21,065 bases of DNA, taken from Psammoneis japonica. Lineage: Eukaryota. Both the position numbers and the translations under genes were made by a program. Positions within the stretch are counted from its first letter, which is position 1, and the number at the start of each line of letters is the position of its first letter. Location: contig QPGO01000265.1 in NCBI GenBank assembly GCA_008632985.1, positions 62,001-83,065 on the forward strand, given 5' to 3'. Of this stretch, positions 1-21,065 are shown one piece after another. A model generated the notes under the pieces. That model was not told where the DNA came from. It was given only the letters and a program-made list of their open reading frames with translations, and did no database searches.

Positions 1-221
1 ACTTATGAAACGTGGTAGTGCAGCAGAGCAACATGGCATATAAAGTAAGCCGGCCAAACTACACGAAATCCACAAGTAAGTAAGTGAACGCCAATTAAGT
101 GCGTACATCGAGTACTGGGCAAGATGCTATGTACAATCGATACCATGAAAGAACAGCAGGACAATTGGTCCGTGTGTCCAAATGAACATGAGACAAACCA
201 TGATGCTCTCGAAAGACATTT
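1..221. repeat. Direct repeat, copy 1 (runs off the window start) of the segment at 2184-2491
   Basis: 1-188 aligns with 2184-2371 and 189-221 with 2459-2491; 7 differing sites by eye. Confidence 0.95.
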
Positions 222-1271
222 TCGTTTCCGCGCGAGAACGGTGAGCGTGTTTGTCTGTGAAAAAAATGTTCGGGTGTGCCAAATCAAACTGGAATTAGGA
301 ACTTCTGAATCTTCAAAGTTTTGAAAAAAGCACACTGTCACCGCACAAAAAAAATTTGTTGCTCAGAACCGCAGTCACCATGAATTGACAACAGCCGGTT
401 CTACTTCATGTAAACTGCCGACACTGAGGAAAAAATGAGATGTGTTGTCGTTCATGGTATTGTTGAGGTCATATGTCGTTTTTTCCTTAGTGTAAGATGT
501 TTTGATGTCGTCGTTATCGACATGGTTGACAATGGCGGACGGAATCTCGGTTGCGCCTTTTTTCGTTGAAATCATCGTAGATTTCTACGTGTGGTTTGCA
601 CTGGATTGTCGGAACGAGTTTTCGTCGACTTGTTGTCATCGATCTGACGGTAGCCTTGTTGATGGTATTTTGACTTGCCTCTCCCAGTATCTCCCATGTT
701 TCAGCTCTCTATTGTATCTAACTATCATGCTGTGCAAAATTATTTCATCTGTAGAAGCCTAGAGAGAAAAACACAAGATCATTCTTGCCGCTCCTGACGA
801 CGAGATTCATGCCACGATGCCGGGACGAACGAGCTTGACTGCAGGGGTGGATGAAAAGACCAGTGTGGACTATACAATGCAGCGCAGTCTTGGCATGCTT
901 ATTAAGACTTGGTGTGATGGCAGTGGAAGTATTCTGTCGGGATCATCCGAGCTCAAATCAGCTCAGGCCGCTGTTCTCTGTTGGTTGATGAGAAATGCAC
1001 CGTCGGGCTGATACAGTAGGTCGATGATCCAGGTAAGTTCACTTGATAAGTCTTATACATTTAACATCTTGATAGTGTGGGCGATTCTAACAGGTGGAGG
1101 CAATGGAAATTGTTTGCTAGGAAGGTCCATTTTTAAACTGCTCATGAGGTCAAATCCTGCCAGTCGACGCAGGCCATGAACCAACCGACGTGCAGCAGCA
1201 GGTAATCATCTCTAGTAGTCTACTATAGTTGAATCTTACATACACAATGCCTAGAGTAACAAGTCATGTGC

Positions 1272-1969
1272 TTAAACTAGCCATCTAGTGCTCCCAAGCA
1301 TATTTCCTCGAGCAAAGAGTGGTCGCTGAGGGCTGAGAGGAGGTCTCAGACAAGCGTTGCTTTGCAAGCAGGGTCCACCAAAGTACAGCAGAATCTGCTG
1401 AAAGAGAAATAATGCCATGTTCACTTTCATTGTGTCCAGTCCTGCCACGGATACAAAAACACCAGCATGACTGTCAACATCAAATCGTCTTGAACGGGGC
1501 AACTTCCATGTTTTTATCGTGCAGCTCGGCTTCCAGTTCAGCCTGTCGAGAAACCAATCGTCATTCTTGCCACTTAAAACAGTCTACATTGGCACCAAGT
1601 CCATCAATCACAGCGTCAAGCTCGGCTCAATGATCGCGGTGCGATCGTTCCTGATAATGGGCCTAGCTGCTGATTTCTTGAGCCGACGCAATGTGGCAAT
1701 CGTCTTGGAATTCTCCAATTCCTCCCCGAGCTCTTCCGGAATATCGTGCCAGAATCAGCTGCCGTTCGGGACAAGACAAAAGATAATCAAAAGACGAATT
1801 GTTCAGGCGAGACGATGGAGAGGAAGGAAACCAAAAAGGCGGCAAAGGGCAAACCTTGCTGTCGAGACAGAGACTGTACTGTAGAACAATGTTGAGGAGT
1901 CGGGTGGGGATGTATGTTGGCGGGGAAGAAGGAACTTCTGACTAACACAGTTGGCAAAATTTGACTTAC
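1272..1969 (-). pseudogene. Possible degraded spliced gene fragment, product unknown (coiled-coil-like)
   Basis: Minus-strand intron-like unit 1969-1879 (CAG|GTAAGT...CTCAAC...TTCTACAG, 91 nt). The frame of ORF 1663-1845 reads on through several stops as ...AELDAVIDGLGANVDCFKWQE*RLVSRQAELEAELHDKNME. No family recognised. Confidence 0.25.
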
Positions 1970-2183
1970 CTGTCTTCTCTACATGGTATGTTACAAAGGG
2001 GTGTCAATAATGCTGTAGAGTTACATCTTCAATTGACAAAGAGTGCCATCGTACTAATAGACTTGAAGACGTGCGACGTGCAATAAAATGAATCGGCGAG
2101 GGAAGGAGAAATAGGTAATGAGCACATTTCACCGTTCGCCCTGAAATGCGCGTTGAAACCGCTGTGGACCATCGTTAATTATT

Positions 2184-2491
2184 ACTTGTGAAACGTGGCA
2201 GTGCAGCAGAGCAATGTGGCATATAAAGTAAGCCCGCCAAACTACACGAAATCCACAAGTAAGTAAGTGAACGCCAATTAAGCGCGTACATCGAGTACTG
2301 GGCAAAATGCTATGTACAATCGATACCATGAAAGAACAGCAGGACAATTGGTCCGTGTGTCCAAATGAACAAAATAATGTCAGAGAGAATACTCGACGCA
2401 ATACTACAGTATATTCATATTCATATACATATAGATAGTTATATATACACATAAAGCGTGAGACAAACCATGATACTCTCGAAAGACATTT
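2184..2491. repeat. Direct repeat, copy 2, with an extra 87-bp AT-rich segment (2372-2458) absent from copy 1
   Basis: Direct alignment with 1-221. Confidence 0.95.
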
Positions 2492-2594
2492 GGAAAATGA
2501 AACGGCCCTGTGTATGCTGGCCTATATAAAACAACAACAGTCATTGCTAATGGCACAATACAGTGAACGTGGAGACATTATTGACACTGTCAAT

Positions 2595-2975
2595 TGCAAG
2601 ATCTAGCTTGAGATGACTTGATAAAAGTTGTGGGAGAACCGAGGAGAGACCCCATCATCGCTGATGCAGCCCAAACCTAACGGTTTCCCATGTGTCTAAT
2701 ACGTTAGTTAAGACGTGTTCCAGTCCCAGGTGACACACAAAACGACAATCGATTTTGAATATAAATTATGTATGTATTAGTGTATATAGTATTTTCATAT
2801 AAAATATTTAAGCGGATTGGCTTTTATAGGCATCTAGAGTATGAATAATTATGAAGAATTAAATAGTTTTTTGTTGGGCATCAAATTCCTCATGGGTTAT
2901 ATATCATAAACTTCCTCAGTAGACTCAATACTGAGGGCACACTCGGTCATAGAGTACATGTGCCTATCTCATTCA
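2595..2975 (-). repeat. 3' LTR of the Gypsy element (381 bp)
   Basis: 2595-2711 matches 8657-8773 and 2933-2975 matches 8789-8831; minus strand reads TGAATG...CTTGCA. Confidence 0.95.
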
Positions 2976-2987
2976 CTCTTCCCCTCC
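2976..2987 (-). other. Polypurine tract of the Gypsy element
   Basis: Minus strand GGAGGGGAAGAG abuts the TG of the 3' LTR. Confidence 0.9.
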
Positions 2988-3083
2988 ATGGTGCAAGGAA
3001 CACGCGCACCATTGGAACCACTCGACTAAAATTCAAAACCCACTGCGCACGGAGAAGGGAACCCAGACGTTGGGAAGAAACCC

Positions 3084-6000
3084 TCAACTCCGATACGGCA
3101 CCACACAGCGAACATTGATTCGCTCGATAACGTGCGGTGCTCGCAGTACCGAAACAGTCCCGTTGGCATGGACTTGTACAATTCGAGACGGACCATAAGC
3201 TCGTTCTTCCAACTTCGAAGGATCCACCGACTTGATTAACACATCTTGACCAACTAGATAATCGTAGGAATGTCGCTTCGCATTTTGTCGTCATAGGTTC
3301 TCGTCAATCAACACTTGTCGGTTGGCTTGTATCGTTGCGAGATCAGAAATAATAGGTAGGTCCAAAATCATATCACGTTGAAACACTAGAGCTCCACTTG
3401 AAACACCCGTAGACCTTGAGTGGGAGCATCGCAAAGCATAAGAGGCTGTAGCAAGGGCATCGTCCACAATCTGCTCGGCCTGTTGAACTTTTAAAGGTGG
3501 GTTAGCAACAACCACAGTGCGCAAGATATTAGCTACCGTCTGGTGCATTCGTTCACAAATAGAGTTGGCTGTAGGATTTCGAGACGTCGTCGGAGCATCC
3601 GCAATACCCGCTTGATTCAGTAACATTTGGAATTCCCAACCAATGAATTCTCCACCATTGTCATGGATGCATCGATTTGGTCTGGGATAACAAGCTAACC
3701 AAAGGTTGCGAAACTTGTTAGTCACATGTTGAGAAGTTTTGTTGTCAATGCGTACGAGTTCAGTCAATCCAGTAACAGCATCAATACAAGTGAGAGTGCT
3801 GAATTCAATCTCTTGATCTTGAATCGAGATCTTCCACGGTCCAATGAGATCAACTGCTACTTCCGTCCATGGAGCTAAAGGCGCTTGACGTTGAGGCAAC
3901 TCTCCATATCCAGGGCCTAGTTGCTTAAATCATTGACATGCATTGCAGACAAATTCATTACAACGTCGCCGCAATGCAGGATGATACATGTGAGTCCGAA
4001 TACTTTCATACAGTCGTACGACTCCACAATGGCCCAATACGCGATGATGCCATGCAATGATATCCGGCAACAATGCAGTGGGAATACAAATCTTCCAGGC
4101 TCCAGGCGGATCATTCAATTGCAAACGATAACAAATCAGGGGACGATGGTTCACAATCTTGACCACAAACTGCTGCGGATTTTGTTGTCTTTGCTGGTTC
4201 AGTTGGAGGTCTTCGAACTGGAACTGTTGGATCCTTAATGTCTCAGTGGGATTCGGCATCTCGTCCAGTGTTGGACAATTCAAAAAGCATTCAAACAATT
4301 CAGGCTCGTCGAGCAGAGAGGAAAAGGCGGCGTGAGACTCATCAGAAGGAGCAACCGGAGCACGGCAACACTTGAACCTGCAAGCGCCTAACTCCAAATC
4401 TTCCTCGGCCTGGGCCTTGGAATCCAACTTTTCAAAATGAATAATTTTTCCTTTGCGTTTACTACTTGGCCCAAGGCTCTTCCCTCCGAAGGTGGATCCA
4501 TACGTGGTAGACGAGAAAAACAATCGGCGAGCACGTTATCCTTGCCTTCGACATACTTAAACGTAGGCGCAAAATCTTCGAGGAACAGGCGCCAACGAAG
4601 GACGCGCTGTGCATTCAAAGTGCGAAAGGTGAGATTTTTGTGATCAGTATGAACAGTGATATCAGCACCGAGTGGCATCGAGCGAAATTCTTTGAAGCAC
4701 ATGACGACGGCCAGTAGTTCTTTTTCCATTGTCGAATAGTTTCATTGAGCCGTCGAAAGCTTTTTAGACCAACACGCCACCGGTTTACCATCTTGAATAA
4801 TAGCGGCGCCCATCTGGTAGTCTGATGCATCGGTGTAAACATGGAATGGTAGGTTATGGTTAGGGCAGGCCATCAATGCTTCCGCCGTGATTACTGCTTT
4901 CATTTCATCGAACGCTTTCTGACATGATTCCATCCATTGGAACTGACTTTTGCCTGTCAATTCAGTCAGAGGTGCAAGTAGGTGAGAACGGCGAGGCCAC
5001 ATATTGCAATAATAAGTTGCTGCACCGAGAAACGATCGGAGTTGAGTAGTGTCCCGTGGAGGTTGCATTCGTAGAATCGCTTCGACCTTTTTCTTCCACG
5101 GTCCAACACCAGTTGGAGTAAGCCAATGCCCTAAGAAATCGGTTTCTTGAACACACCACTCGCATTTCAACGGATTAACTTTCAAACCATTCTCTTCGAG
5201 ACGATGTAGCACCTTGTCAAGACGAGAGAGATGGCAATCAAAGTCAGTATCAAACGCTCCAATATCATCAATATAAGTTTCGACATCCAAACCATGAAGA
5301 ATCTTTTCAATAATGGACTGAGCAATGTCTGGAGCTGGCTTCAATCCCATAGCCATACGACAATGCTGAAACTTTCCGTAGGGAGTTGTAATCGTGGCGA
5401 GCTCTTTGCTTTCATCGTCTAATTCCAAATTGTAGTAGAACATAGTGAGATCCAATTTCATGAAGAATTTGTAGCCCGCTCTTCGTTGTAGCACATCTTG
5501 AATAACCGGTAAAGGATGCACTTTCCGCTTGAGGACCTTATTGAGCTCCCAAAAATCTGATACCCATCGTACTCGACCGTCGACGCGTTCCAGCCCTAGG
5601 TGGGAGCTCGTAGTACTGACGTGTGACAACAATAATTTTTATCATCCGTCGTATGTTTCGTACGTAGATTTCTACGTGTGATATTTAAAAAAAATTGTCC
5701 AGACTCGCTGTTTTGCGAAGCCCCAGACGTTTTATATAACAAATTTATAGAAACAATAATGCACCAGTTACATTCTTCAATGTCTGAAGAATGTAACTGG
5801 CTAAGTAAAAAATGATGTACTTCAATCATGTGCGAGTTTGTGCGTTCGCAAAATTGCCTCATTTTCTGTTGGCGATCATTGACACTTTAATTACCGTATA
5901 ATTTTACTACGGAGCTCGCACGTAGAAGTCTGCGGGCCCAATGTCACACGGATTCCCACCTACGTCTGGAACGCGTCCGTCCTTCTTCGGAGTAATAAAA

Positions 6001-7088
6001 GTACCAGCTGCCCATTCCGTAGGTCCACATGGTCGCAGCACACCGAGATTCACCAAGTGCTTCAATTCCTTTTTGAACGCTTCTTCATTAACTCGAGCAA
6101 CAGGAAACGGTTTTGAGTGATAAGGAATAGCGTTTTCATCCACTTCAAGGTGTACCTTTTCATGAGGATAGTGGCCCAACGTTCCGTCAAACAAGGTTGA
6201 ATACTTTTCCAACGCCGCTAGTAGTTTCTTCTTTTGTTCTTCCGTGAGATGGTCCAGATTCCGAACTACCTCCGCCGGATCCGTTGCTTCATACTTAGCA
6301 TCGAGCATGTGGGTGTCGTATCCGTCGTCGTATCCGTAGTCTGACTCGTCTTCATAATCTTCATCAAATTCATCCATTCGGTCTAAAGCAACATACCAAT
6401 TATAGGACTTGGACCAATGACGAGGCTCCTTCATTGGAATTACGCGGTCTAACCAACGTAGTGTTCTCGTATCATAGTTCAAATTGAGGCCAATCTTATC
6501 CAAGAAGTCTCGACCCAAAATGACATCATACGCACACGGAGCATCGAACACGTGAGCCACACAGCCGTCAATCCTCCTGGTCTTGTCGAATTCCGGTAAT
6601 ACAATATCGCTCAGGGCTACCCAACGACCCAACTGAAAAGGACCTGCAACGGTTTGAAAAGCTCGGACTCCATGTTCGTCAATAGATGGTACGGCTCCTC
6701 GAGGTAAAACTTGAGACGAGATCATAGTGTGAGAACCACCTGAGTCAAACAAGACACGCATCACACGATTCGACTCATGCCGCTGGATCAATTTCGTAAC
6801 AAGTAGTGTAGATGGGACCAACGCAGTACGCGAGACTTGCGATTTCATTTTGGGGAGAGGAATGTGATACTCAAATGCATCCTGATCGAACACGTCCCCC
6901 TCTTCATTCATGTAATTTTCTGCAGTATTTTCAAATTCAATGGGTGACAATTCGTCAGGATTTTCAAAACAATCAAAAACAAAATATTCATCATTTCTTT
7001 CAGGTAAAACACAATCATTTTCATCAACAAATACTTCTCTCATAGGCAATTGGGAGCATTCAGCTCCAGAGCATTCAGCTCCTTCTTC
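3084..7088 (-). pseudogene. pol: Gypsy pol: aspartic protease, reverse transcriptase, RNase H, integrase (disrupted)
   Basis: PR LFDSGGS...ILGRDFL; RT YIDD and NPLKCEW; RNase [28 protein letters not shown] zinc motif, VDLIGPW, HDNGGEF, NSICERMHQT. Broken by TGA stops at 4742, 3930 and 3291, a frameshift near 4480 and the MITE at 5582-5977. Natural stop at 3084-3086. Confidence 0.95.
5582..5977. mobile_element. 396-bp non-autonomous TIR element (MITE) inserted in the Gypsy RT
   Basis: 24-bp TIRs GACGCGTTCCAGcccTAGGTGGGA (5582-5605) and 5954-5977, 2 mismatches; 4-bp duplication CGTC at 5578-5581 and 5978-5981. Removing 400 bp restores [13 protein letters not shown] in frame. Confidence 0.93.
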
Positions 7089-8331
7089 TCAGAACTGCCG
7101 AGGAAACTGCCCATCTGGCTGAAACCTCACCACACCTCCATAACGTGGAGGGCCTCGTCCGATCATATCGAAATGGTGCACGTCACCACGAGGAGCTTCT
7201 CGAGCCTGGTTGTTGTTGTTCATATTGTCTGCTTGAGCAGCACATCCGTCGGCCTGACCTTGGCCTCCACGGTTGTTGTTTTCATTATAATGATGCTGAC
7301 CACCACCTTGGTTGCCATTGTTATTTTGGTGTCCATTGTTGTTATTGTTGTTATAACAGGTACCACGACCTCCTTGGTTCTGGTTACCACGACCACCAAA
7401 GCGTCCACCGCCTCCACGGCCTTGTCCACGGCCTCCTTGGAAACGACCTCCGCCTCGACCTCCACCGCCACGGCCTCCACCTCGACCGCCACGGTTTTGA
7501 GGCTCACGATAGTTAGGGTTGTTTGGATTATCATAACACTGGCCCCACGTATGCCTTCCATGGTGCCACGGGACTGGACACGGATCATTCGCCTTTGGTT
7601 GGCCCTTGCTATCCTTCTTGTCTCAGTTGCCCTTTTTGTTACTAGAGTTCCCTCCATTGCCATTATTGGACTTGCGCTTCTTGTTGTCCTGACCATCGGC
7701 GAATACCTTCTCATTGCTCATGTAGGCTTGGATGTCCACCATCGAGTCCGTAACAAGGTTCTTGCCCGCACGAATGTAAGACTGCTGCCAGGTCAAAGGG
7801 AAGGTGTAGAAGATAATATTTTTCTGCTCCTGCTCTGTAAGTTCAGGAACGGTTCCAGGCAAACGGTTAGTGCAACGAAACACCGTTTCCATATGATCAA
7901 CATGAGTTTCCGATTCCGCTGAATAAGGCTTTTTGCAAGTAGGCAAATACATCTTCATTGTGTCGCGAGCTGTTGGTTTCACGTAGCGCAAATAATAAGC
8001 CAAGATAGCCTGATTAAATCGAGCCACCGTCCGTTGATTCTGTTGGATACCCGTGGTAATATTCTGCCATTTCGCTTCCGCAGTACCTTGAAGGCAATCC
8101 TCGAAAGCATCAAATAATTCTGGTCCGGCATCATAGTCGAGCTGTCTTGCCACCTTCCGGAACCTATCCTCCACGTGCAATAATGATTCAATTCCATGCT
8201 CTCCTGTGAAAATAGGACACATTTTCGAAAGTTTAGTACCATCATCAAAGGTTTGAGTGAGCTTCACTTCCTGCAATTCTGAATTTGGTCTTATACTCAA
8301 TGCACGCTTTCTCCAAGGCTTCTTGATACAT
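7089..8331 (-). pseudogene. gag: Gypsy gag (disrupted)
   Basis: ORF 7623-8300 continues in frame past a TGA into a Cys/His knuckle (CPVPWHHGRHTWGQC) and an RGG/Asn-rich tail, up to TGA at 7089-7091. Probable ATG at 8331 with a frameshift near 8280. Confidence 0.8.
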
Positions 8332-8608
8332 GGCGATGAACAATTTCAGCGATCAAATAATCAACAATCCACAAGATGAACGAAACAAAGCGTTCCCAAT
8401 TGATCCACACAACGAGAACAATTAACAACCAAACAAGAATGAATTCAATAGTAGCAACACGAGCTTTGAGTTCAAACAAGCGCTGCTCTGAATCGCCAAT
8501 TTCACGAGTATAATTACGCGGCGATTCTGATCGACTTCGAATGAAATTTTCTGCATGCGCTCGTAAATAGACTTTCTCTCTTCTCAACAACACTCTTCGC
8601 GTTGTCAT
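8297..8608 (-). CDS. Small accessory ORF upstream of gag (103 aa; basic N-terminus, hydrophobic putative transmembrane segment)
   Basis: ATG at 8608, 48 nt inside the 5' LTR boundary; uninterrupted; IEFILVWLLIVLVVWINW hydrophobic run. Confidence 0.45.
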   Translation of the reverse strand: MTTRRVLLRREKVYLRAHAENFIRSRSESPRNYTREIGDSEQRLFELKARVATIEFILVWLLIVLVVWINWERFVSFILWIVDYLIAEIVHRHVSRSLGESVH

Positions 8609-8656
8609 AAAACTGATAATGCAATGAACAAGCTATAACAACGACTGTAATTACAG

Positions 8657-8831
8657 TGCAAGATCTAGCTCGAGATGACTTGATAAAAGTTGTGGGAGAA
8701 CCGAGGAGAGACCCCATCATCGCTGATGCAGCCCAAACCTAACGGTTTCCCATATATCTAATACGTTAGTTAACACACATATATCAGAGAGGGCACACTC
8801 GGTCATAGAGTACATGTGCCTATCTCATTCA
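8657..8831 (-). repeat. 5' LTR of the Gypsy element, internally deleted (175 bp)
   Basis: Matches both ends of 2595-2975; the 221-bp middle is replaced by 15 bp. Confidence 0.93.
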
Positions 8832-8891
8832 TCAATGTCCGTCGAATAATCCACTTAACAAATGACTCTAATGTGCAATTAGGGAGGCGAA

Positions 8892-9689: not shown

Positions 9690-12600
9690 GCCTTAAGCAG
9701 CATTTGAAGTTGCGCTACGCCTTGTTCCACGTCCAGAGATCAAAAAACCCCACCACCAAGGGATTGGGGTCCGTAGAGGATGAGGCGCTTCGTGTTCCTA
9801 TCACACCCACATTTGGTGAGTACAATCCTCATCGCCTTTTGTTGTACTGTACGTAACTCTTTTGGGAGAAATGTTGTTGAATTTGAGACGAGCACATGTG
9901 TCATTGAAGACAGGTAGCATGAGTGGTAAAACCTCCACGTTTCAGCATGATTTAGGGGGCAGGAGCGAAGAAAGAGGGCGGTGTTGTCACTCTTGGATTG
10001 GAGCTTCTTCAATTGGGTCTTCTGAGTGCCGATCGGTGCCATGTAGTGTCCAAGCGTTTTATGGGGAGTGTACGCGGAGAGTTGAGTGCTGGAATGGGAG
10101 GTTGTTCTATCTGCAGAAAAATTTTTGATGTTCAGGTCATCGTGGTAAGGGTGAATGAACGGTTCACAGTACTCCGTGAACTCCCACTCCACAGCATGGA
10201 AGGAGCACTTAGGCAGCTCAAGTTCATGTCCAGAGGCGTTAAGGAGATCGCACCAGAGTTGGTTATCCTGTTGGAGGGAAAAGGACAAATCATGTGCCGA
10301 AGGTTGTGGACTTGCGAGGAAGTCATTAACTTGTTTGGACGTATCGTCAACACAGCCGCGATTGTACACTCGGATGAAGAACCTGCCATCAGGTGTTTCG
10401 AAATATGCACCGATGGCTCTTGCATCGAAAATGTCAAAAAGGCGGCTGCATAAGGAGTTCCAACACCCGGGCGAATTGCCACTCCCTTGACCAGTGCCAT
10501 GCAGGGGGTGTGTGTCTGAGTGAGAACAGCTCCTCTGAGCCAATCCCAACAGTGTCCTGAGCCAATATCAAGCATGATGTAAAGTCACCATGTTGACTTC
10601 GACCGCTTGGGACTCCATTCCATCACTCCTTGAACATGAGCTGACGATTGCTGGAACATTCCTATCGAAGCAAGATGTGCAATCATCGTCACTCTTCAGC
10701 AACGTCTTTCGTGAGGCTCTTGACATTTCTAACATCAAATTCTCTAGGAAAACTGGGGTCTGTGCGGACAGGAAGGAACTACATCCGTAAATGCCTGGAT
10801 TGTACATTCAGTGGTTCTCCATGTGCTGGGCCAATTCACGCCACTTGACACTTGTAACAATCTGAAAATCTGCTTCACATGTGTGAATGACCCGCAGCCG
10901 ATGGATTTTGTTGTTTCCTGGCTCCTTGAATGTCATTACGTTGACAATGTCTTTCCAGCGGTCGTACAAATAGCCCCACTTCAGAGCACAGTTGATGAGA
11001 TGAAGGCGGATCGTGAACAAAGTTTGCTGGACTTGGTCTAGGTGCACTTTCTCTGGAGTCAGATTACCTTGGGCATCAAGGTCTTTTGCGCGAGCATGAT
11101 TGATGTACAATGCCTTCCAGTGGCCAAGATGCAAACCTGATTTCAGAGAAGTAGATGTGGATTCTGACCACTTCTTCAACTTTGATAAGAAAGCCTCAGA
11201 TGATAAATGATTCTTCACTGCTGGTGGTGTGCGTCGTCGGAGGTGCTGAACAAGCAACAAAGTTGCAAGATTCAAGTGACTAGCTTCGTACTCCCCATCT
11301 AAAATAAGCTCTGCCATGATCGCACTCCCTTCATGTCCCAAGTCAATCGACAGGGGAGGAACTGTCGGAGGTGTGCCATGGGCCAGACCAAAGTGACGTT
11401 GGTTACGTGTCTGTAGTGCTGACGCAACATCATCTGGAGCATCGACCGTCATCTAGTGTTCGCATGTCTTCGGATTCTCCTGTGGATTCTCTGGAACTTG
11501 TATGGTTTTGACACTGGAGTCCTCCTTCTTCTTGCATGCATTGATCTTGCAAAAGACTCGCTTTGTCTCCTCCACACAGTGCAAGTTCTGTAGGATTTTT
11601 CCTCGGCTTTGGACTTGTTGGTGCCTTCGAGTTCTAGTTCAGCAATTTTTGTATCTCATTCCGTGTCACGGTGTTTCTGGCTGTCGCGAGCAACTTGACG
11701 ACACTCAGACCGGGCTCGTCACAACACTGTGGAACATTCTTGAAGCGTTGTGGGGAGAAGAAAGGATGAAGAAAGTTGACACTTTGATCAGAGAATGGAA
11801 GGCACCACATCTTTCCGGTTCCTGAACATGGACATCACACACAACAACACAAAGACTTGCTTCCGGAGGTCCGCTAGCTTGATGGACCATTCAGGCAGGT
11901 CCCTTGCACCGTTTGCATTGTTTGGCTGCCGACAATGAGAACTGTAACATGTCACGGTCTAATCTCTTGGCAAGACTATGATTCCGTGCATCAGATTCAA
12001 AAAGGGCCTCCACTCGGGCAAGGACATTCCGACTTGTTATCAGAGGATCCATTGCTTCAAGATACGTAGTCACGTGTTTGGGTGATGATGCTTGGAGGTC
12101 TTGAAACTGAAATCTTGGTAAATCAATGGAAGGGCTTCTGAACAGGGCAACTGTGTCGAAGTCCACAAAATAAGCGTGATGATCAGATGACATTCGACAC
12201 CCAAACGATTCGTATCCACAGTGTCGTACAGCAGCTAAAGCCCCGGGGGTAGCTAGGACGTAATCCAGGTGTCGAGAACCTCGAACATAGGTTGAGAAGT
12301 CGAGATCTCTTCGTGTTGATGATACATGACGTCGGACATGTTGAATCGTTGTGCCATTGAAGCCAGGGTGTCGGAATCATGGCGAAAATTGGTGTTGAAA
12401 TCTCTGACAAGGATCACTTCATGGTTTGGGTCATCCAAAAAGCGTGCAAGGATGCATGTCAAATCAGTGCAAAAAGCTCTGCAAGGGTCGGGATTAGCTC
12501 TACCTTGTTGGTGGAGTAATGCCACTTGCTGAGCATATGTGCCGTTGTCTTGCCGGCAAGGGAGGAAGAATTGGTGTGCATGCTCTGTAGCACGACACAA

Positions 12601-13142
12601 ACATGACCTGATGGCCATGTTTCCCATCAAAAATCTGAACAGACCAGCGTCCCAATGGGTCTTCATGTTGAGCATGAAAGAGAATTACACGACATCAAGG
12701 CGGCGGTGCCGCCCGGTTTGTATGGAGTGGAGAAAGTAGTCTTCGATGACAAGCAGGAAAGTCTGCCATGATGTAGAGATCGTTTCACCGTGGATGTGCA
12801 ACTTTGATGGACGTGAAATTGCGTGGTGTCCAAACAAGTCTCTGAGATTCCGATGAGATCTGCCTGGATTTCGGTAGCTACCTGAGTGCAATCGTTGAAA
12901 TCACCTCCGGGTTGGTCAAATGAGCAACCATTGGCATTGAACGCGTACAATCGTGCATGGCCAGGTAATTTGGGGAGTAGTGGATCACCAACTGGGTCAT
13001 TCGAAGACAATTTGGTGTAGTCGATGGCAGTGGAGGGAGGGACATAATTTCTACCTGACAATGAGTGGGTCCACTGCTGAGCAGCAGAGTCAACTGCAGA
13101 CGAAGGGGCATCACCCCTCATGTTGAGGCTGTGCTTCCTCAA
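9690..13142 (-). pseudogene. LINE ORF2: AP-endonuclease and reverse transcriptase, many stops and frameshifts
   Basis: EN motifs FNANG, ADLIGISET, KPGGT, RDFN, SDH; RT motifs KEPGNNKIHRLRVI, DCTSCFDR, GTGQGSGNSP, CVDDT, LELPKC, KTLG, GPQSLGG. The frame continues as SLDVEQGVAQLQMLLK to about 9690. Confidence 0.9.
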
Positions 13143-13209
13143 AGGAAGGCTGAAGGAAGACTCTCGTCTGCGTCATGGAGTGGAGGCAGGGGGGACGACT
13201 GGACCTGCC

Positions 13210-14900
13210 TTACAAAAAATCCGAAGTATCGGCATCCATCATCGAAGTGTCCCCAGGAGGAGCATGAGCAGAGGCACCGGCTGGAGCAGACTTCACAGGC
13301 TTTTTCCGTTGCGGAGAAGATGGATCACTCGGAATTGCTGATGTGAATGTGTCTTGTGTCATTACCTGCAGCTGTGTAGCCAGAGCAGTTTGTAACTGGG
13401 CGGCAATGGTAGCTTGTAACTGAGTAGACAAGGTTTAGAGAGACTCTTGGTGCTTCTTTTCGAGTGCCACAAAGCGCTTTTCTTGGTCCAGTTGATTTTT
13501 TATAACGAGTTGTTGCAATTCTGCAATCTCAGTCGACTGGTTAGACATGTCAGAGATTGGAATGGCGCCAGGGGGATCACTGCTCCTGGGGTGTTCTGCA
13601 ACACTTGAGAACATGGTGGAAAGCTACCTTGAACGCCTGCACTCTTGGAAACCAGAGGACCTTCAGAGTCAGCTGACTGAGGAGGAGCTGCTGAAGCAGC
13701 TGGAGAAATGTTGGAAATGTCTAAGGAGGCCCAACTCTGGACACTAGCAGAAGAAATGGATTGGACTGCATCGGACATGTCGTCGCTAATTCCGGGAATC
13801 ATGGGTTTGATTTGGCTATCCGGGATTCCAGCTTCGAGTGTGATCTTATCGAACTGTTCTGGAAGATGTTCAGCAATATAATGTTTAGCCTGATGAAAGC
13901 AATCCTTGTCCACCAAAATGTTGTAACGCGGGACAGCTGTGAGTTTCTTGGAGGGGACAACATCTAATGCACCATGGACTTCCTTGATCGTGTCCGACAA
14001 ATAAAAGGAAATGGCTTCCGTGTAATGAAGCACTGGAATAACGTGAATCTTGGCACTCGTTTTGCATTGTTTGCGGACTGCTTTGTCAAAGGCTTCCGGT
14101 TGCGAGTAACGCCAGCGGGAAAGAACAATTGCCAATGGGTGTTCCTTCAAGACTTCCATCAGTGCATGAATCATGTCTTTTGCACGATCGTGAGGAGTTT
14201 CGATGGCGTAAAAAGTAGTGCGAAGGGATTGATCAAATGGGGAGGAGGCGGACTGAACAACAAGCCGGAAAGGTATTTTGGAACTGCTGCGTTGGGGAAG
14301 AAGAGCCATCAATAACTTCTGAGCTAAATCCGCGGGGCAGTGCTTTGGCAAGAGATCCACCAACAGGGCGACCCGGGAAAGATCCACAACAGTCTCATCC
14401 CAGTCGTGACGGCACACATAAATTCTGTTGTCTTTTAACACCTTGTTAATAAATGGGACACTCTGAACATCGGTGAGTGACAGAGACATGCGGATACGGT
14501 GGGCAATGACAAAGGTGGGAGACCGATGACGGGAGCCACCGATGCGATGCACAACAAAGTGTTGGGAGTGAGTAAGACCTGGAGTCCACTCAACGACATT
14601 GACATCAGGGATTTTGAGACCTCGATTAGACACAATCATCATCTTATTCATCAGTGGGTCTTGGGAAGCTTTCTGTTGGAGCGCATTGAGAATCGTTGTG
14701 TGGCCCATAGCCAACACCGTAGATGCGTTGTCGTCAGAAGAGGCAAGCTCAAAACGGATGGTCATCTCTTTAAGAGAAGAGCTCTCAGGTTTTCCGGAGC
14801 CAGTCCTGGTTGGAGTGGATGGAGTAGAGTCCTTATCAGGTGGAGGCTTTGGTTGAGGGTCGCCGGCAAGGCTGGCCTGCGGCGGAGGGGGGATCGTCAT
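13210..14900 (-). pseudogene. LINE ORF1 (frameshifted near 13530; C-terminal coiled coil)
   Basis: 473-aa ORF directly upstream of ORF2 on the same strand; heptad-like QLQATIAAQLQTALATQLQ in the downstream frame; ATG at 14900. Confidence 0.7.
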
Positions 14901-15081
14901 GGTGATGGGTTTTCGGTACAAAATTCACGTAGAATTCCACGTAGAAACTATTAACAGGTACTTACGCAGAAAAGTGCAGCAGAGCAACATGGAACATGGT
15001 GATAGAGATCCCTGTATCTACAGGCACCAGAGGGGGGGGTGATATTTTGAGACAGTGAAGTGTGCTTAGTTGAAGGGGGCG

Positions 15082-17662
15082 GTGCACTTCAAGTGCACTG
15101 GCATAATTTCCGGTGCACAGCGGTGCACTGATAAGTAAATTTTGACTTTCTTTCGTCCTTAAGTAGCTTTGTCAAAAGGGTCATTCGAAAACTCGAGTGG
15201 CGCACCATAAGAAAATCATCAAAAACTCGCATTTCTCGTTTGCGAGAGAGAAAACACACACTCGACGATGGCATCTTACGTTATTTTGAAGGGCGGCGGA
15301 TTCAACATAACGCAGCAAACCCGCTCTCTTGGTGAGTCGAGCTTGAATGAGACACTGAAGAAGTACAAGCTGGACACAACGTCACCAAAACTTGCAATTA
15401 CAGGAAAGAACAAAAAGACCGGCGAAGTGGGCACTGACACCGTTGCGACTAGTTCCATTGCACGGCATGAACCCATGTGGAGGCCATTTCATGACTTCTG
15501 TTACCTCATTGGTGACTCTGAAAGTGCCATGCTGCTGGCACGTGACTTGTGTCCATCAGATCCTTTTCCTTCGAATTTGGATACAGCAATCCAGTTTACT
15601 CAGTTCAGGACAAAACAAAAGGGCGAACCACTGCTTCACAACCGCACAAACGCTCCAGTAAAGGACCGGCATGGAAACCCCATCACCTGCATTGGTGATT
15701 GGAAAGGTCATTCTTCCATTGGGCTCTTCCGCACTGCCATGAGCAAGCTTCATAAGCACTACGAAACGACCAATGGCGAACACCGAGAAATGTGTGCTGA
15801 TTGTCGTGAGATTGGTGAGGAGGAAGCCCGAAAGGGCACTGGATGCCTCAAACACCCTGGTGATCCCCATTTCTGGCATCGTGGAAATACCACCAAACAT
15901 GAAGATTTCAAGGCTGCAATTGACCAATGGCAAGACTATGCATCGAACTACTACGAAGCTAGAAGTGCTTTTGCATTCTTGCCGGGCGAGGTGCGGGCTA
16001 TTCGAGACTACTGTTCGTCACATAATGACAAGTATCATCTAATGCTGTGGACTATCATTGTTGTTGGTACAAAGTCATTTCTACGCTGCGAAGAGGTTTA
16101 GGAGATGACGGTTGAAAAGTTTGTCACCGAGTACTTCCAAGTAACAGAAAATGCCGTCAAGGGTCTCTGCACCAAAATCCGTGGCAAGCATGACGACAAG
16201 GATCTTCATTTCATGGTTTGGGACGATGAAGAATGTCCTGAATTCTCAGGAACTATTGCTATTCTCATTTGGATGCATTGTTCTGGCATCAAGTCGGGCA
16301 AGTTGTTTTCCACTAGAGACGAGTTGGAGCTCAACAATGAACATCACGACGAAAATTATCCATATGACTCGCTCCTGGATTTTTTCAAGTTTGCTTGCGA
16401 AACCATTCTGGGAAGGGACATTGATAAGATGTCAACTGAAATCATTGGACCACACATTCTTCGAAGGACTGGCTTCGCGTTTGCCAAATGGGGCTCTACG
16501 CGTGACGGAGGGCGGCTGGGTGAGATGGCCGAAGCGAATATTTTGCTGAGCGCTCGTCACAAGCATGTGTCAAGCACCGCGACTTACCTTTCTGACAGTG
16601 GTACATTGAAGACTCTAGTTGACAGGGAAAAGGACAAGGATGCTCACCGTGTTGGTAAATGGGAGCCCATCCATGTGAAGCATCTTTTTTCATTTGCATC
16701 CGTCATGGTGGACTCTGCCAGGTACCGAAATCCTCTGCCAGAACTTGCTGATTGGTATGTCACGGAACTGCTTGGTGTGCAGCAGAGCAACTTATTGACC
16801 GTCAAGCAACTGTTCGCAAAAGCTACATCATACACGCCGAACTTGCCTGATGAAGAAGAAATGAAGCAGTTCTTGATTCATGAGCTTGGATCCAGCAAGG
16901 CAGAGGTGGTGATGCGAATGCACGATAAGTCGGCTGCAGAAAGAGTGCGTGCTGCACAGTCTACAACTTTTGAAGTACTCACCAACACCAACAGTACAAG
17001 GGAGAAGCAAGCTGCTACTGTCCCAGCTCAAGATGAAAGGAACACCAAAAAAACCAAGTCCACAGGTGACACCATCGTCCAGTTTGATCGTGACTGCCAA
17101 TCTGAATTTAAATCCACCAAGGATGCTGCTGCCAAGGTTCAGGTATTTGTGGATGCATGTCAGGACATGAAAGGTCAGGTGTGCGCCGGTAAGTTTTTGG
17201 AAGATCCTATCAAAAGCTTTGCATATCGAGCCGCTAGGGTCGTACAGTGCCTTGACGACTGCTACGAAAGCAAGGTTGATTGTTTTTTGCAAGAGAATTC
17301 TGGGCCCCTGTCAAAGTTCAGGACGTGCAACAAGGGTGTCAATCACAAGCCTACATTCGACATTGCAAAACTGTAAGAGGACGGAACGTACCAACACATA
17401 GAAATACATAGCGTTGTTCATCATTGTCAACAGCAGCATCGCGCCGTGCTTCACTCGTTCGCGTTTCGGCGAGCGACTCTAAATTCTGGTGAGCGTTAGC
17501 GCCTCCGTAGTTTTTCTACGACTAGAAGTACTCTCTAGTAGGTACGATCAATACCACGACTACCCACGACCTCGCGTGACGTGTACTTCGGTCTATACTG
17601 TGCTCTGCAGGCTCCAGTACTGATTCTACGTGAGTGCACGGTGCACAGCACAGATGTGCTGT
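15082..17662 (+). mobile_element. Crypton-like tyrosine-recombinase DNA transposon
   Basis: Lone YR gene with no RT; flanked by 11-bp direct repeat CGGTGCACAGC (15111-15121, 17639-17649) and GTGCAC-rich palindromes; exact ends uncertain. Confidence 0.7.
15268..17376 (+). pseudogene. Tyrosine recombinase (~700 codons) with one in-frame TAG at 16099-16101
   Basis: Catalytic pattern R (FLRCEE), K (RGKHD), HxxR (HILRRTG), H (SARH), Y (TATYL); ORFs 15268-16101 and 16105-17376 share a frame. Confidence 0.88.
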
Positions 17663-17692
17663 ATCTAAGTAGGAATGACACGATCCACTAAG

Positions 17693-20616
17693 ACAAACAC
17701 GACGTCAACGATTGGTCCATCAAGGTCCCCAACGGTCTGCAGCGCATCACCACCCTTGATGGTTACATCATCCCCATTGACATCAAAGGCGGCCTTCCAT
17801 ACATCGCCATGCGCCCACACACTGATGCCAAATGGGACACCTTGCCACACGTCGTCCTCACTGGTGATGACACTTGGGACCCATCTGTCCTCGACCACCA
17901 GTTCACCGACAATGAGACATGGTATGATGCCGTATCTGACCTCCAGGCTGACCCGACTACCAACCTCTTTGATGAGTTTGGCAACTATCGCCACCGTCAT
18001 GTCATCAACAACGCCATGCTTACGGACTCCGTCCTTGATGACCACCTGCTCCCAACGTCCGATTTCTTCTACGAATGCCATGAGCACGAGATCAATCCAA
18101 AGGATCCTGACTTTGAGTCTCTGCGCCCTTATTTTGGCTTTCTCCCGAAAAACACTGTCCGCCGCACTTTCGATTGCACGACGCAATGCGCTCGCATGTG
18201 CAGCATGCGACTGTTATATGCATATTCATAATTATATATTATTTATATGTCAATCGTACCACAGTCGTGGATACGTACAAAGGACAGAACGATCACACAG
18301 AGTTGATCGGATGTCAAAAATTGCAAATACGATCGATTGACGATGTTGACATCTTACGTGTCAATGGCAATCGTATCCGGACAATCTGTTGTCACGAATA
18401 TATTCTCCGAAAGGCCTTTTGTCTGTAGAAGCAGTGCAGAAGCTTTAGGCCATTGAGAACTCGTTCGGAGAAACCAAAAATCACAGAGCAAAATTTAATC
18501 TCATAATTTTCACTTTTCATACTTGATTCTACTTTTGTTTATACTCGTTCTTCGAGCATAGTGCACATGCCCGCCAGCACGCACTTGTAAAAGGCGTACA
18601 AAGTGCCCAACCCGGCCCTCAATGTCCACCACTGCAATGAACCCGTTGCCACCGACATGGTGTACTCTAACACCCCCGCCATTGACTCCGGATGCACCAG
18701 CGCCCAGCTTTTTGTTGGCACGGAATCCCTTGTCACGGACGTGTGTGGAACCAAGACCGACCAGGAATTTGTCAACACGCTTGAGGACAACATTTGTAAT
18801 CGTGGTGCCCCATCCAAGCTCATCAGCGACCGTGCTCAGGTTGAGATCAGCAAGAACAAAATCCTTGGCATCCTTTGTGCCCTCTTCATCTCTAGTTGGC
18901 AAAGCGAGCCTCAGCAACAGCATCAGAATTTTGCTGAACGTTGCCACCAAACTATGAAGACCATGGCCAACACCATCATGGATTGCTTCGGGTCTCCGGC
19001 TTACACCTGGCTACTCGCCCTGATGTACGTGTGCTTTGTGCTCAACCACACGGCATCTGCCAAGCTCCACTGGCGCACTCCCACCAAAGTGCTGTCCGGC
19101 TCTACTCCCGACATCAGCCCGCTCCTCCGTTTTCAATGGTGGAAACCTGTGTGCTGTCACCTGGATGATTCCGACTGGCCGTCCGAATCCCGTGAATTAC
19201 TTGGTCACTTTGTTGGCATTGCCGAACTCACGTGGGCCTCCAAATGATGTTCAAGATTCTTTCTGACGACACTCAAAAGATTCTCTACCGTTCCAACGTT
19301 CCGCCCGTGATCCGTCTGCCCCGAACCTGCATCTTGATCCTCCTGATGAGAGATCTGCTGAACCTGTCATTAAATCCTGCCATGACTCCGAAGATTTGCT
19401 GGATTCACCAGATGGGGAGGCGATCAGGATGCCCAAAATGCCGGTCTTTGACCCCAAGGATATCATCGGACGCACCTTCCTGATGAAGCCACAAGAGGAT
19501 GGACAACGCCACAGAGCTTGCATCGTCAAAGCCGTTGAGGACCACGACTGGAAAATCGGAGACAATCCTGAACTAGTTAAGTTCATTTGCTCCGTCAACA
19601 ATGACGAATACGAGGAAGTCCTAGCCTACAACGACATCATGCACCACATCGAGCAAGAAGACGAGGATGCTACCCTCTGGAAGTTCTGACGTATCGTGTC
19701 ACACGAAGGACCATTGCAACCCCATGATCCCTCTTGGAAAGGCTCAAGCTACAATGTCATGCTTGAATGGGAGAATGGGGAGGTCACATCCAAACCCCTT
19801 GCCATCATTGCCAAGGACGATCCCGTCACCTGTGCCATCTGTGCACGTGAGCACGGCCTCCTTGAAACCGAAGGATGGAGGCATTTTTGCAAGATAGCCC
19901 TGCGTCAGAAGAAGCTGTTCCGCATGGCCAACCAAGCCAAGTTACGCTCCTTTCGCACTGCACCATGATGCAAGTACGGACATGAAGTGCCACGGGACTA
20001 CAAGCACGCCTTGGCCCTCGATGAGCGCAATGGCAACTGCAAGTGGGGAGAGGCAACGGACCTCGAGATGACTCAGCTTGATGAGTACGAGGTCTTCCAT
20101 GACTGCGGACATTACAAAGATTCCAGCACCCCATTGGGACACAAGAAGATCCGGGTGCATCTTGTCTACGACGTCAAACATGACAGACAGCACAAAGCAA
20201 GGCTGGTTGCCGATGGACACCTTACGGATGTGCCCGTCAACAGTGTCTATTCCGGAGTAGTGTCTCTTCGCGGCCTGCGAATGATGATCTTCCTAGCCAA
20301 ACTCAACGAACTAGAGACTTGGGCCACCGACATTGGGAATGCCCATCTTGAAGCTACGACCAAGGAGAAACTGTACATCGCAGCAGGCCATGAATTTGGC
20401 AAGCTAGAAGGACACATCCTTGTCATCCACAAGGCCTTGTATGGACTCCGCAGCTCTGGCCTCAGATGGCATGAACACTTTGCCAATTGCCTGCGTGCTG
20501 AAGGATTCTTCCCGTGCAAAGCCGAACCCGACATCTGGCTGCGCAGGAATGGTGACCACTACGAATGTGTGGCAGTGTATGTGGATGACCTAGCCTTCGC
20601 CATGAAGGACCCCCAG
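17693..20616 (+). pseudogene. pol: Diatom-type (CoDi-like) Ty1/Copia polyprotein fragment: integrase then RT, 5'-truncated
   Basis: LPHVVLTGDDTWDPSVLD; IN EPVATD, LISDRAQVEIS, SEPQQQHQNFAER; RT HKARLVADGH, ATDIGNA, KALYGLRSSG, YVDDL. IN before RT is the Copia order. Confidence 0.93.
18199..18565 (+). repeat. Solo LTR (367 bp) inserted in the Copia ORF; same family as 8892-9251
   Basis: TG...CA ends; 4-bp TSD CATG at 18195-18198 and 18566-18569; removal restores TTQCARMPASTHL*KAYKVPNPALNV. Confidence 0.93.
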
Positions 20617-21065
20617 TGCAGCAGGCATCCCTACCGTGGCCACCGATGATGCCACTTTCCTGTGTCTGTAGGCTGTCCGTAGCGATGCTGATCCCGCAGA
20701 AGCGCGCATTAGATAACGCGACTCCTGGTACGAGACCTACGATGGTCTACGGGAGATCCATGCGACTGAGACCAGTGTGACTGGCCATCGCGCAAGTGAC
20801 TCACCTTGTATGAAAGGTATGCGTAGGATGTATGCAGCACCGAGTATGACTGATTCCGCGAAAGGACTCAAGCTCCGTATGTCTTACTATCGCACATACG
20901 CATGCTCTACGTAAAATAAGCTCATAATTTTTACACACACAGAAAATCTCTATCTCTACGGTTTAAGTACTTAATCCCTATTTCTGCATAGGTCATAGTA
21001 ATGTTACTTCCGGTAAGTGCAAGAATAGCTTTATTTAACTAACCATGACTGTCAACCGTTCTGCA
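20617..21065. repeat. Probable LTR of a third family interrupting the Copia RT
   Basis: RT similarity ends abruptly after YVDDLAFAMKDPQ; the new sequence starts TGCAG and the window ends CTGCA (5-bp inverted termini); right flank and TSD not visible. Confidence 0.6.

Follow-up and report, generated by a model that had tools for sequence, protein, structure and literature searches.

The question raised by this locus is which process left its repeat copies differing at sites that are TA in one copy and TG or CA in the other. An earlier note had attributed these sites to a process that converts TA to TG or CA in repeats. The window analysed here, a stretch of 21,065 nucleotides, consists of nested dead retrotransposons (Gypsy, Copia and LINE-like elements and solo LTRs). 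Going by the named best hits, the host is probably a diatom. The features of the window are listed below, with the strand where one was assigned.

1-221: repeat copy truncated at the window start; 96% identical to 2184-2491 (self-BLAST, global alignment)
2184-2491: second copy of this repeat, with an 87-bp TA-rich extra segment at 2372-2458 (self-BLAST, global alignment)
2590-8836, minus strand: complete Gypsy LTR retrotransposon, with one LTR at 2595-2975 and the other, with about 205 bp missing, at 8657-8831
8892-9251: LTR-like repeat with TG...CA ends, of the same family as 18199-18565 (92.6% identical)
9740-14924, minus strand: LINE-like non-LTR retrotransposon with several broken frames; TA observed/expected (o/e) 0.39, the lowest in the window
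15211-17376, plus strand: unassigned repeated ORF, about 720 codons long and interrupted in frame by a single stop; TA o/e 0.40, multi-copy by depth
17692-21065, plus strand: Copia-type retrotransposon continuing past the window end; Pfam RVT_2, 120 polyprotein relatives
18195-18569: solo LTR (18199-18565) inserted into the Copia element, with a CATG target duplication in the flanking sequence

The Gypsy element carries Pfam rve, Integrase_H2C2, RVT_1, RNase H and Asp protease domains and is bounded by a 5-bp target duplication, TCAAT, at 2590-2594 and 8832-8836; the empty site was seen in contigs that join 2589 to 8832. A Pfam search of the LINE-like element's own ORFs gave no domain match; the element has 1681 relatives, and Exo_endo_phos is present in the full-length ones. 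The repeats at 8892-9251 and 18199-18565 were considered as two LTRs of one element, a pairing that was rejected because 18199-18565 is a solo LTR with its own CATG duplication; two contigs join 18194 to 18566.

TA differences between copies

Three repeat pairs (1-221 and 2184-2491, the two Gypsy LTRs, and 8892-9251 and 18199-18565) were identified by self-BLAST and aligned globally, and their differences were counted by script. The count agreed with the one made by eye in the earlier note (16 TA-type, 2 ambiguous, about 5 CpG-type and about 5 other sites). Sixteen sites were TA in one copy and TG (10) or CA (6) in the other; the remaining differences were two CA-versus-TG sites (four nucleotides), five CpG-type changes, three other transitions and four transversions. 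The pair at the window start contributed three TA-type differences, one CA-versus-TG site, one CpG-type change, one other transition and one transversion, and the Gypsy LTRs contributed two TA-type differences, adjacent to each other, and one CpG-type difference. The third pair contributed 11 TA-type differences, up to seven of which lie inside a low-complexity stretch (8905-8945).

Across the three pairs, TA-type changes made up 16/28 transitions, compared with an expectation of 0.274 from identical sites (binomial p=9e-4). Per dinucleotide, 16/59 positions that were TA in either copy differed in this way, versus 5/37 CG positions. Two low-complexity stretches, 8905-8945 and 2690-2696, which have a (CA)n(TA)n(TG)n appearance, held 7 of the 16 TA-type sites; microsatellite slippage could mimic these seven, and with both stretches removed the proportion was 9/19 (p=0.05).

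The window was also compared with other genomic contigs. Among the 40 of 2811 differences listed, 31 were transitions: 20 TA-type, four CpG-type and seven others (p=1.2e-6 against 0.233). At listed sites where every other contig differed from the window, the window had TA versus CA or TG six times and CA or TG versus TA three times. Taken naively this split favours the direction opposite to TA>TG/CA, but it is ambiguous, because the other contigs may form one amplified subfamily.

Direction, context and strand of the changes

Polarity was assessed from 868 protein columns, each with a conservation of at least 80% among 30 or more of the 510 relatives. TA>TG/CA changes were found at 14/136 possible sites, compared with 2/245 for the reverse direction, which is that of RIP (Fisher's test, p=2e-5), and 3/611 for other A>G and T>C changes (TA versus other AT>GC, p=1e-8). 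Other G>A and C>T changes occurred at 3/425 sites and CG>CA/TG at 25/225. The TA>TG/CA rate thus equals that of CpG decay and is about 20 times that of other transitions. By 5' base, A>G changes numbered 9/73 after T, 2/84 after A, 1/136 after G and 0/117 after C. Eight of the 14 TA-type changes were A>G on the sense strand and six were T>C.

Conserved Tyr had become Cys or His at 11/42 window columns (7 Cys, 4 His), in the Gypsy (4/19), Copia (5/18) and LINE-like (2/5) elements alike, as the earlier note had claimed, and the occurrence of both products on the coding strand bears out its statement that both DNA strands are affected. In the opposite direction, His>Tyr, Cys>Tyr, Trp>stop and Gln>stop together accounted for 1/98; stops arose once from Trp and never from Gln at conserved columns in the window. 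The changed codons at conserved columns were as follows.

3111-5518, minus strand: span of the inferred Gypsy TA>TG/CA changes, given below by codon start
4774 and 4867, minus strand: Gypsy Tyr>Cys
5365 and 5518, minus strand: Gypsy Tyr>His
5020, minus strand: Gypsy Val>Ala (GTA>GCA)
4675, minus strand: Gypsy Leu>Pro (CTA>CCA)
3113, minus strand: Gypsy Ile>Val (tATT>tGTT)
10879, minus strand: LINE-like Tyr>Cys
9898, minus strand: LINE-like Tyr>His
11455, minus strand: LINE-like Trp>stop, in the RIP direction
19152, 19155, 19840 and 20566, plus strand: Copia Tyr>Cys
20344, plus strand: Copia Tyr>His

The eight closest Gypsy relatives (72-78% identical) retain the consensus residue at the six Gypsy sites other than 3113, where seven have Ile and one (P0121) has Met. 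The Copia element also carries ten Arg>Cys/His/Trp/Gln changes, attributable to CpG decay.

Two context-specific decays at similar per-site rates were present, CpG>TpG/CpA and a TpA-specific A:T>G:C transition, which reads as TpA>TpG or TpA>CpA depending on the strand. The TpA context, the direction, the involvement of both strands and the separateness from 5mC decay, all part of the earlier interpretation, were upheld. The TpA decay removes Tyr codons and TA-rich tracts, creates no stop codons and leaves DNA that is TpA-poor and rich in CpA and TpG. Consistent with this, TA o/e was 0.56 and CA/TG 1.28 over the whole window, and TA o/e was 0.39-0.66 by element compared with 0.70-0.85 in most control loci. 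Over 1-kb windows, rho(TA) was correlated negatively with rho(CA+TG) (r=-0.54) and positively with rho(CG) (r=+0.48); a TA-rich tract persists at 2001-3000 (rho 0.97).

The controls were 30 related Gypsy loci from metagenomes of other marine samples. Tyr>Cys/His changes were found there at 3/369 columns (0 Cys, 3 His), the pooled TA class showed no excess (14/1382), and CpG decay was evident (77/852). Of 391 public relatives with at least five conserved Tyr columns, 333 had no Tyr>Cys/His change and six had 25% or more; one, P0071, has no Tyr in 269 residues. Such near-total loss in a few relatives points to copy-targeted hypermutation. Hardly any Tyr is left in some public copies that show almost no Arg>Cys/His. 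In five strongly altered public proteins Tyr>Cys exceeded Tyr>His by 26:6 (p=5e-4), a bias that is not predicted by a purely strand-symmetric DNA process.

Candidate process and alternatives

The earlier note had taken the signature to be undescribed, a belief that is now outdated. In a 2026 preprint on another marine alga, Bigelowiella natans (Mettrop et al., bioRxiv 10.64898/2026.01.13.699255), two integrated viral regions carried 231 mutations, of which 230 were A>G or T>C, every one of the 230 at TpA; an ADAT2-like adenosine deaminase was proposed, and genes low in TpA were enriched for reverse-transcriptase and endonuclease-RT domains. Enzymes of the ADAR and ADAT types prefer a U on the 5' side, a point also made in its discussion. 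The window carries the same odd kind of signature: only A>G/T>C transitions on TpA, giving TpG or CpA by strand; uneven, burst-like action is a further likely parallel. The systems also differ. Bigelowiella natans is a chlorarachniophyte (Rhizaria) whose mutations were observed directly, during mutation accumulation, in two inserts: one of a giant virus, present as a single copy, and one of a virophage. The host here is probably a diatom (stramenopile), and the process is deduced from how its Gypsy, Copia and LINE-like elements have decayed; unlike in B. natans, strong CpG decay runs alongside, and the signature is known here from mobile DNA alone. No report of such a TpA signature was found in the literature on diatoms.

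On balance, the TpA decay of these dead retrotransposons is probably akin to the B. natans hypermutation, with an adenine deaminase as the candidate cause. The process would be of the kind seen in the B. natans mutation-accumulation lines, where integrated foreign DNA is hypermutated at TpA only, and may act in bursts on silenced, integrated mobile DNA. Action after integration is suggested here by a single observation, the two adjacent TA-type sites in one Gypsy LTR pair. Most speculatively, a candidate ADAT2/TadA-like enzyme might act at TpA on both strands, turning adenine into hypoxanthine by deamination. Pol eta (WA>WG), another candidate of the earlier note, fits less well, because A>G was rarer after A than after T and the class consists of transitions only.

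Other known systems share some of these features. Ascomycete RIP also targets a YpR dinucleotide in duplicated or mobile sequence, alters some copies heavily and yields TA<->CA/TG differences when copies are compared without polarity, but it converts CpA to TpA and creates stop codons, whereas TpA is destroyed here. Decay of 5mC, found in the same elements and in the controls, likewise adds CpA and TpG; it has another target dinucleotide and base change and cannot convert Tyr to Cys or His. Restriction by APOBEC3 (G>A) or ADAR (A>G) resembles the window as copy-specific, editing-type hypermutation that disables retroelements, but acts before integration on one strand of RNA or cDNA, whereas the strands are about equally affected here. 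ADARs are not known outside animals.

It is unlikely that a genome-wide bias of mutation or biased repair turns TpA into TpG/CpA everywhere, with retrotransposons merely recording it through neutral evolution and no defence involved. TpA under-representation is common among genomes, the whole window is TA-poor, including its non-coding parts, and the comparison lies within mobile DNA, the only DNA that the window holds. However, if TA loss exceeded gain 13- to 20-fold everywhere, almost no TA would remain, yet the tract at 2001-3000 persists; the controls had no TA excess, and loss among public relatives is nearly all-or-none per copy. In addition, Phaeodactylum mutation-accumulation lines show a 2.21-fold GC>AT bias, with TA absent from the mutable dinucleotides (PMC6604790), and in B. 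natans the same signature occurs in two regions only. The all-or-none pattern would also be expected if an ADAT/ADAR-like deaminase edited retrotransposon RNA, and perhaps minus-strand cDNA, during retrotransposition, so that copies arrived already mutated, an adenosine counterpart of APOBEC3 restriction. ADAT-based mRNA editing in fungi prefers a 5' U, the affected elements here are all retroelements, and the sense-strand product dominates in the five heavily altered public proteins. This explanation is decidedly unlikely given the 8:6 strand ratio in the window, the TA-type differences between the LTRs of one Gypsy element, which are expected to arise after integration, and the B. natans target, which is integrated DNA-virus sequence in dividing cells, without reverse transcription.

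The equal per-site rates of TA loss and CpG decay in the same elements, and the joint fall of rho(TA) and rho(CG), would suit a side effect of 5mC repair, in which a T:G glycosylase (TDG/MBD4-like) at methylated repeats converts T:G at TpA to C:G. Such glycosylases have a context preference, and this would be the eukaryotic counterpart of the very-short-patch repair that depletes CTAG in E. coli. It is nevertheless very improbable: equal rates are hard to reach, since T:G mispairs from replication errors should be far rarer than 5mC deamination, the controls combine strong CpG decay with no TA loss, and public copies stripped of Tyr show almost no Arg changes. Almost no credence can be given to fungal-type RIP (CpA>TpA) by a RID-like DNMT4, in which case TA would be derived. 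TA<->CA/TG differences of unassigned polarity are exactly its trace, the six-versus-three split of listed window-private sites leans that way, and many diatoms encode a RID-like DNMT4 that groups with fungal RID (PMC9998398), but the polarity, the 1/98 count of RIP-type codon changes and the composition all run opposite to it. Extremely improbable, too, is an artefact, whether from modified bases misread in base calling or assembly, from slippage in microsatellites or from misaligned proteins. The low-complexity pair differences could be explained in this way, and the window's letter was absent from every contig at 24/40 sites in the contig comparison (40 of 2811 differences). However, X1 contigs have no differences from the window over 9644-15029, which includes both LINE-like Tyr changes; the same method gave no Tyr>Cys among the control columns; and the signature is shared by three unrelated elements and also turns up in public proteins that come from other assemblies.

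Mobile elements and differences between their copies

The window (21,065 bp, GC about 47%) consisted of mobile DNA only, with no unique DNA, and contained the following elements.

2595-8831, minus strand: complete Gypsy element; LTRs at 2595-2975 and 8657-8831, 5-bp target duplication TCAAT, Pfam matches to integrase, reverse transcriptase (RT), RNase H and protease
9740-14924, minus strand: broken LINE-like element; 1681 relatives, own ORFs without a Pfam match
15211-17376, plus strand: repeated, multi-copy ORF of about 720 codons; one in-frame stop, TA observed/expected ratio (o/e) of 0.40
About 17692 to the window end, plus strand: Copia element; Pfam RVT_2 match, interrupted by a solo LTR
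18199-18565: solo LTR within the Copia element; CATG duplication, contigs joining 18194 to 18566

Contigs of public sequencing runs were matched onto the window and stood for other genomic copies. Other copies of the repeat surrounding the Gypsy element had an empty site, with contigs joining 2589 to 8832. The LTR at 8657-8831 was without approximately 205 bp that the other LTR has at 2712-2932; because 20 contigs of other copies span this segment, the difference was taken as a deletion in the LTR at 8657-8831 and not as an insertion. The best named matches of the Gypsy RT were all from diatoms (Cylindrotheca, Nitzschia, Ditylum, Pseudictyota and Cyclotella, 53-63% identity; other matches reached up to 77%), and the host is therefore probably a diatom. 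Full-length relatives of the LINE-like element carried an APE-type endonuclease domain (Exo_endo_phos match in three of five). The RT of this element (9740-11452, minus strand) was missed by Pfam RVT_1 despite the 1681 relatives, and its motif was read as GCVDD (codon start 10354), with Cys in the window where the consensus is Phe. Relaxing E to 10 still yielded no Pfam match for the ORF at 15211-17376, which a short contig of run X2 covered over 16077-16985 at a depth of about 1790; on visual inspection its C-terminal portion bears a tentative resemblance to tyrosine recombinases of the Crypton/DIRS type.

Three repeat pairs (1-221 and 2184-2491; the two Gypsy LTRs; 8892-9251 and 18199-18565) were recovered by self-BLAST and aligned, and their differences were counted by script. 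The count was essentially equal to the tally made by eye in the earlier note: 16 sites were TA in one copy and TG or CA in the other (10 TG, 6 CA), two were CA versus TG and five were CpG-type, with three other transitions and four transversions. TA-type sites accounted for 16/28 transitions against an expected 27% (p=9e-4). Two stretches resembling (CA)n(TA)n(TG)n contributed seven of the 16; outside them the proportion was 9/19 (p=0.05). At these stretches (8905-8945 and 2690-2696), one copy has the form (CA)n(TA)n(TG)n and its partner is richer in TA. Slippage could explain this, as could incomplete TA>TG/CA conversion of TA-rich tracts, and the apparent microsatellite at 8905-8945 may be a product of the TA>TG/CA process rather than of slippage. 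An 87-bp TA-rich segment (2372-2458) was present in the repeat copy at 2184-2491 and missing from that at 1-221. The Gypsy LTRs differed at three sites, two of them adjacent and TA-type; the case for action after integration, which consists of these two adjacent sites of one Gypsy element, is thin.

Of the words sampled from 8892-18565, 70% occurred in a public run. When the contigs of this run were matched to window positions 1-20000 at 80% likeness, 10,212 matched, and the element families are therefore highly repeated. Among the 40 listed of 2811 contig differences, 31 were transitions, of which 20 were between TA and TG/CA, four were CpG-type and seven were other (p=1.2e-6); the context bias towards TA-type differences is real. 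In the same 40, the window had TA where all contigs had CA or TG at six sites (1088, 2790, 5420, 6402, 7287 and 19578) and CA or TG where all contigs had TA at three (599, 15349 and 15429). This 6 versus 3 split is ambiguous, as it fits either CA/TG>TA change in the window lineage or derived CA/TG common to an amplified subfamily. Total contig differences by kind leaned towards AT>GC (A>G 629, T>C 635, G>A 474, C>T 475), but these totals hinge on the family tree and were left out of the polarity evidence.

Polarity at conserved protein columns

The direction of change is decisive, because fungal RIP also leaves unpolarised differences between TA and CA/TG. Relatives of the Gypsy, Copia and LINE-like elements (n=510) were aligned to the window by tblastn, and 868 codons were used at which at least 30 relatives covered the column and at least 80% of them agreed. 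A polarised change was a single-transition departure of the window from this consensus, and rates were expressed per nonsynonymous opportunity; 18 multi-step and 23 transversion-only changes were left out of the rate table.

Polarised transitions at conserved protein columns of the window (class; changes/opportunities; rate)
TA>TG/CA; 15/137; 0.11
CG>CA/TG; 25/225; 0.11
TG/CA>TA; 2/245; 0.008
Other A>G, T>C; 3/611; 0.005
Other G>A, C>T; 3/425; 0.007

An Ile>Met change at 6308 was common to the two closest relatives, and its removal gave 14/136 for TA>TG/CA, against 2/245 in reverse. The closest relatives retained Tyr at all 11 changed Tyr sites and the consensus residue at the other sites of TA change (at 3113, seven of eight did so). 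Of 42 conserved Tyr columns, 11 had changed to Cys or His in the window (4/19 in Gypsy, 5/18 in Copia and 2/5 in the LINE-like element). A>G changes depended on the 5' base (T 9/73, A 2/84, G 1/136, C 0/117) and T>C changes on the 3' base (A 6/64, C 0/85, G 0/91, T 0/98). Both strands were struck, with eight A>G and six T>C events on the sense strand. These results confirmed the observation of the earlier note and its polarity, including its claims that Tyr is replaced by Cys or His in all three elements and that both DNA strands are hit. The three retroelements had undergone a TpA-specific, strand-symmetric AT>GC transition at CpG-decay rates. The base 3' of the A was a pyrimidine at 23/36 non-Tyr sites, compared to a background of 51% (p=0.08), and no motif is claimed beyond TpA. 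Three Tyr>Phe (A>T) changes were also seen at conserved columns.

The same procedure was carried out on 30 related Gypsy loci from metagenomes. These control loci had no Tyr>Cys and three Tyr>His changes in 369 Tyr columns, and pooled rates of 14/1382 for TA>TG/CA, 77/852 for CpG and 22/1665 for TG/CA>TA; the TA class differed significantly between window and control (p=1.5e-8). The method therefore picks up CpG decay and does not manufacture TA loss. Composition agreed with the polarity result. The o/e values of the window were 0.56 for TA, 1.28 for CA, 1.29 for TG and 0.85 for CG, and rho(TA) dropped as rho(CA+TG) climbed in 1-kb windows (r=-0.54). By element, TA o/e was 0.39 in the LINE-like element, 0.40 in the ORF at 15211-17376, 0.56 in Copia and 0.61-0.65 in Gypsy, compared to 0.70-0.85 in most control loci. 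In four metagenome Gypsy fragments (L013, L015, L018 and L023), TA o/e was as low as 0.48-0.56 although no conserved Tyr had turned into Cys or His, so that a shortage of TA is not by itself a diagnostic sign of the process.

Tyrosine-depleted public relatives

Among 391 public relatives with at least five conserved Tyr columns, 333 had no Tyr>Cys/His change and six had changes at 25% or more of these columns; the window's own copies had only moderate Tyr loss. Five reverse transcriptases, relatives of window positions 4742-5638 and 19969-20649, had Cys or His in place of 44-78% of their conserved Tyr: P0071 (7/9), P0095 (5/8), P0105 (5/9), P0036 (7/14) and the Copia protein P0356 (8/18). In the 269 residues of P0071 Tyr was entirely absent, against an average of 3.9% across the family. 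All five had nearly no Arg>Cys/His changes. At two adjacent Tyr columns some copies read Cys-His and others His-Cys, and the same TA was therefore struck independently on either strand. This close to all-or-none pattern looks like copy-targeted hypermutation, and not slow uniform decay. A search of metagenome contigs with P0071 returned the 30 relatives that served as control loci, of at most 60% identity, its own contig being absent; a search of genome contigs gave no match, nor did one of viral contigs with P0036.

Precedent, mechanism and significance

The earlier note knew of no description of such a process as a defined pathway. TpA-restricted hypermutation has already been described in the chlorarachniophyte Bigelowiella natans, in a 2026 preprint (10.64898/2026.01.13.699255) of which part was available. 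In mutation-accumulation lines of this organism, 231/302 new mutations fell within two integrated viral regions; A>G and T>C made up 230 of the 231, every one of them on TpA. Mutation proceeded at approximately 6e-7 per site per generation, in some lines only. RT, endonuclease-RT and DDE domains were overrepresented among genes low in TpA, and an ADAT2-like adenosine deaminase was proposed as a candidate. The available part of the preprint does not mention diatoms, and our literature search found no report of TpA hypermutation in diatoms.

The window shared with B. natans the site (an A after T, or a T before A), the AT>GC direction with TA ancestral, the TpG and CpA products on both strands, and depletion of TpA with enrichment of CpA and TpG. 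A process of the B. natans type would be restricted to integrated DNA of foreign or mobile origin, leave a normal spectrum elsewhere and be episodic, affecting some lines or copies only; the window read here was mobile DNA throughout, and Tyr loss was concentrated in few public relatives. By analogy, we consider it probable that the same kind of targeted, episodic process acted here. Its cause is more speculative, and might be deamination of adenine to hypoxanthine by a candidate ADAT2/TadA-like enzyme. U precedes the edited A in the natural substrate of the ADAT2/TadA family. The TA>TG/CA change removes Tyr codons without making stop codons; LTR tracts that are promoter-like and rich in TA would be predicted to shift towards TG/CA.

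A general, genome-wide TpA bias is an unlikely alternative, to be read against a window of mobile DNA only. In the available part of a study of Phaeodactylum mutation-accumulation lines (PMC6604790), the bias was GC>AT (2.21-fold) and the mutable dinucleotides were CG, CC and TG, not TA. Editing of RNA or cDNA before integration, of the ADAR/ADAT type, predicts sense-strand A>G only, whereas 6/14 window events were sense T>C; the sense-strand excess of Cys over His in the five public proteins (26:6, p=5e-4) keeps this model alive, and we regard it as improbable. Misdirected T:G glycosylase repair in methylated DNA was considered very improbable. Pol eta-type WA>WG change, which predicts A>G at AA plus transversions at A, was set aside as a poorer fit on small numbers, with AA changed at 2/84 and TA at 9/73 and the three Tyr>Phe (A>T) changes also present.

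Artefact and fungal-type RIP were weighed and also set aside, artefact as scarcely credible and RIP as the least credible explanation of all. RIP depends on a RID/DNMT4 enzyme and on duplicated sequence; it changes C to T at CpA, and so enriches TpA and makes stop codons, which the TpA process does not make, erasing Tyr codons instead. The window went in the opposite direction, with TG/CA>TA at only 2/245 and a TA o/e of 0.56, and His>Tyr, Cys>Tyr, Trp>stop and Gln>stop changes summed to 1/98; the direction therefore rules out a RIP-like reading. According to the accessible part of PMC9998398, many diatoms encode DNMT4, a relative of the fungal RIP enzyme RID with no known function.

It is possible, and we propose it tentatively, that TpA-directed editing of integrated mobile DNA is an old genome defence that diatoms and chlorarachniophytes share across the SAR supergroup. 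It would act on retrotransposons and integrated viruses, which would be disabled through loss of Tyr codons, of TATA-like tracts and of other signals containing TA rather than through stop codons. If so, a copy hit with full force would be left without any Tyr, as in the Tyr-free public reverse transcriptases. To our knowledge, mutation biases and defences of the genome almost invariably drive GC towards AT. A TpA>TpG/CpA process in mobile DNA comes so far from one organism and the one 2026 preprint, with no enzyme identified in its available part. A matching polarised signature in three unrelated retrotransposons of a probable diatom, at rates like those of CpG decay, would add retroelements and a second major lineage to its range; the phenomenon can no longer be called undescribed, yet both the lineage and the class of target would be new to it. 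Replacement of conserved Tyr by Cys or His offers a simple sequence assay for genome surveys and directs the search for the responsible enzyme, possibly a natural DNA adenine deaminase, to genetically tractable organisms. The process would also bear on the evolution of TpA depletion and GC content in algal genomes.
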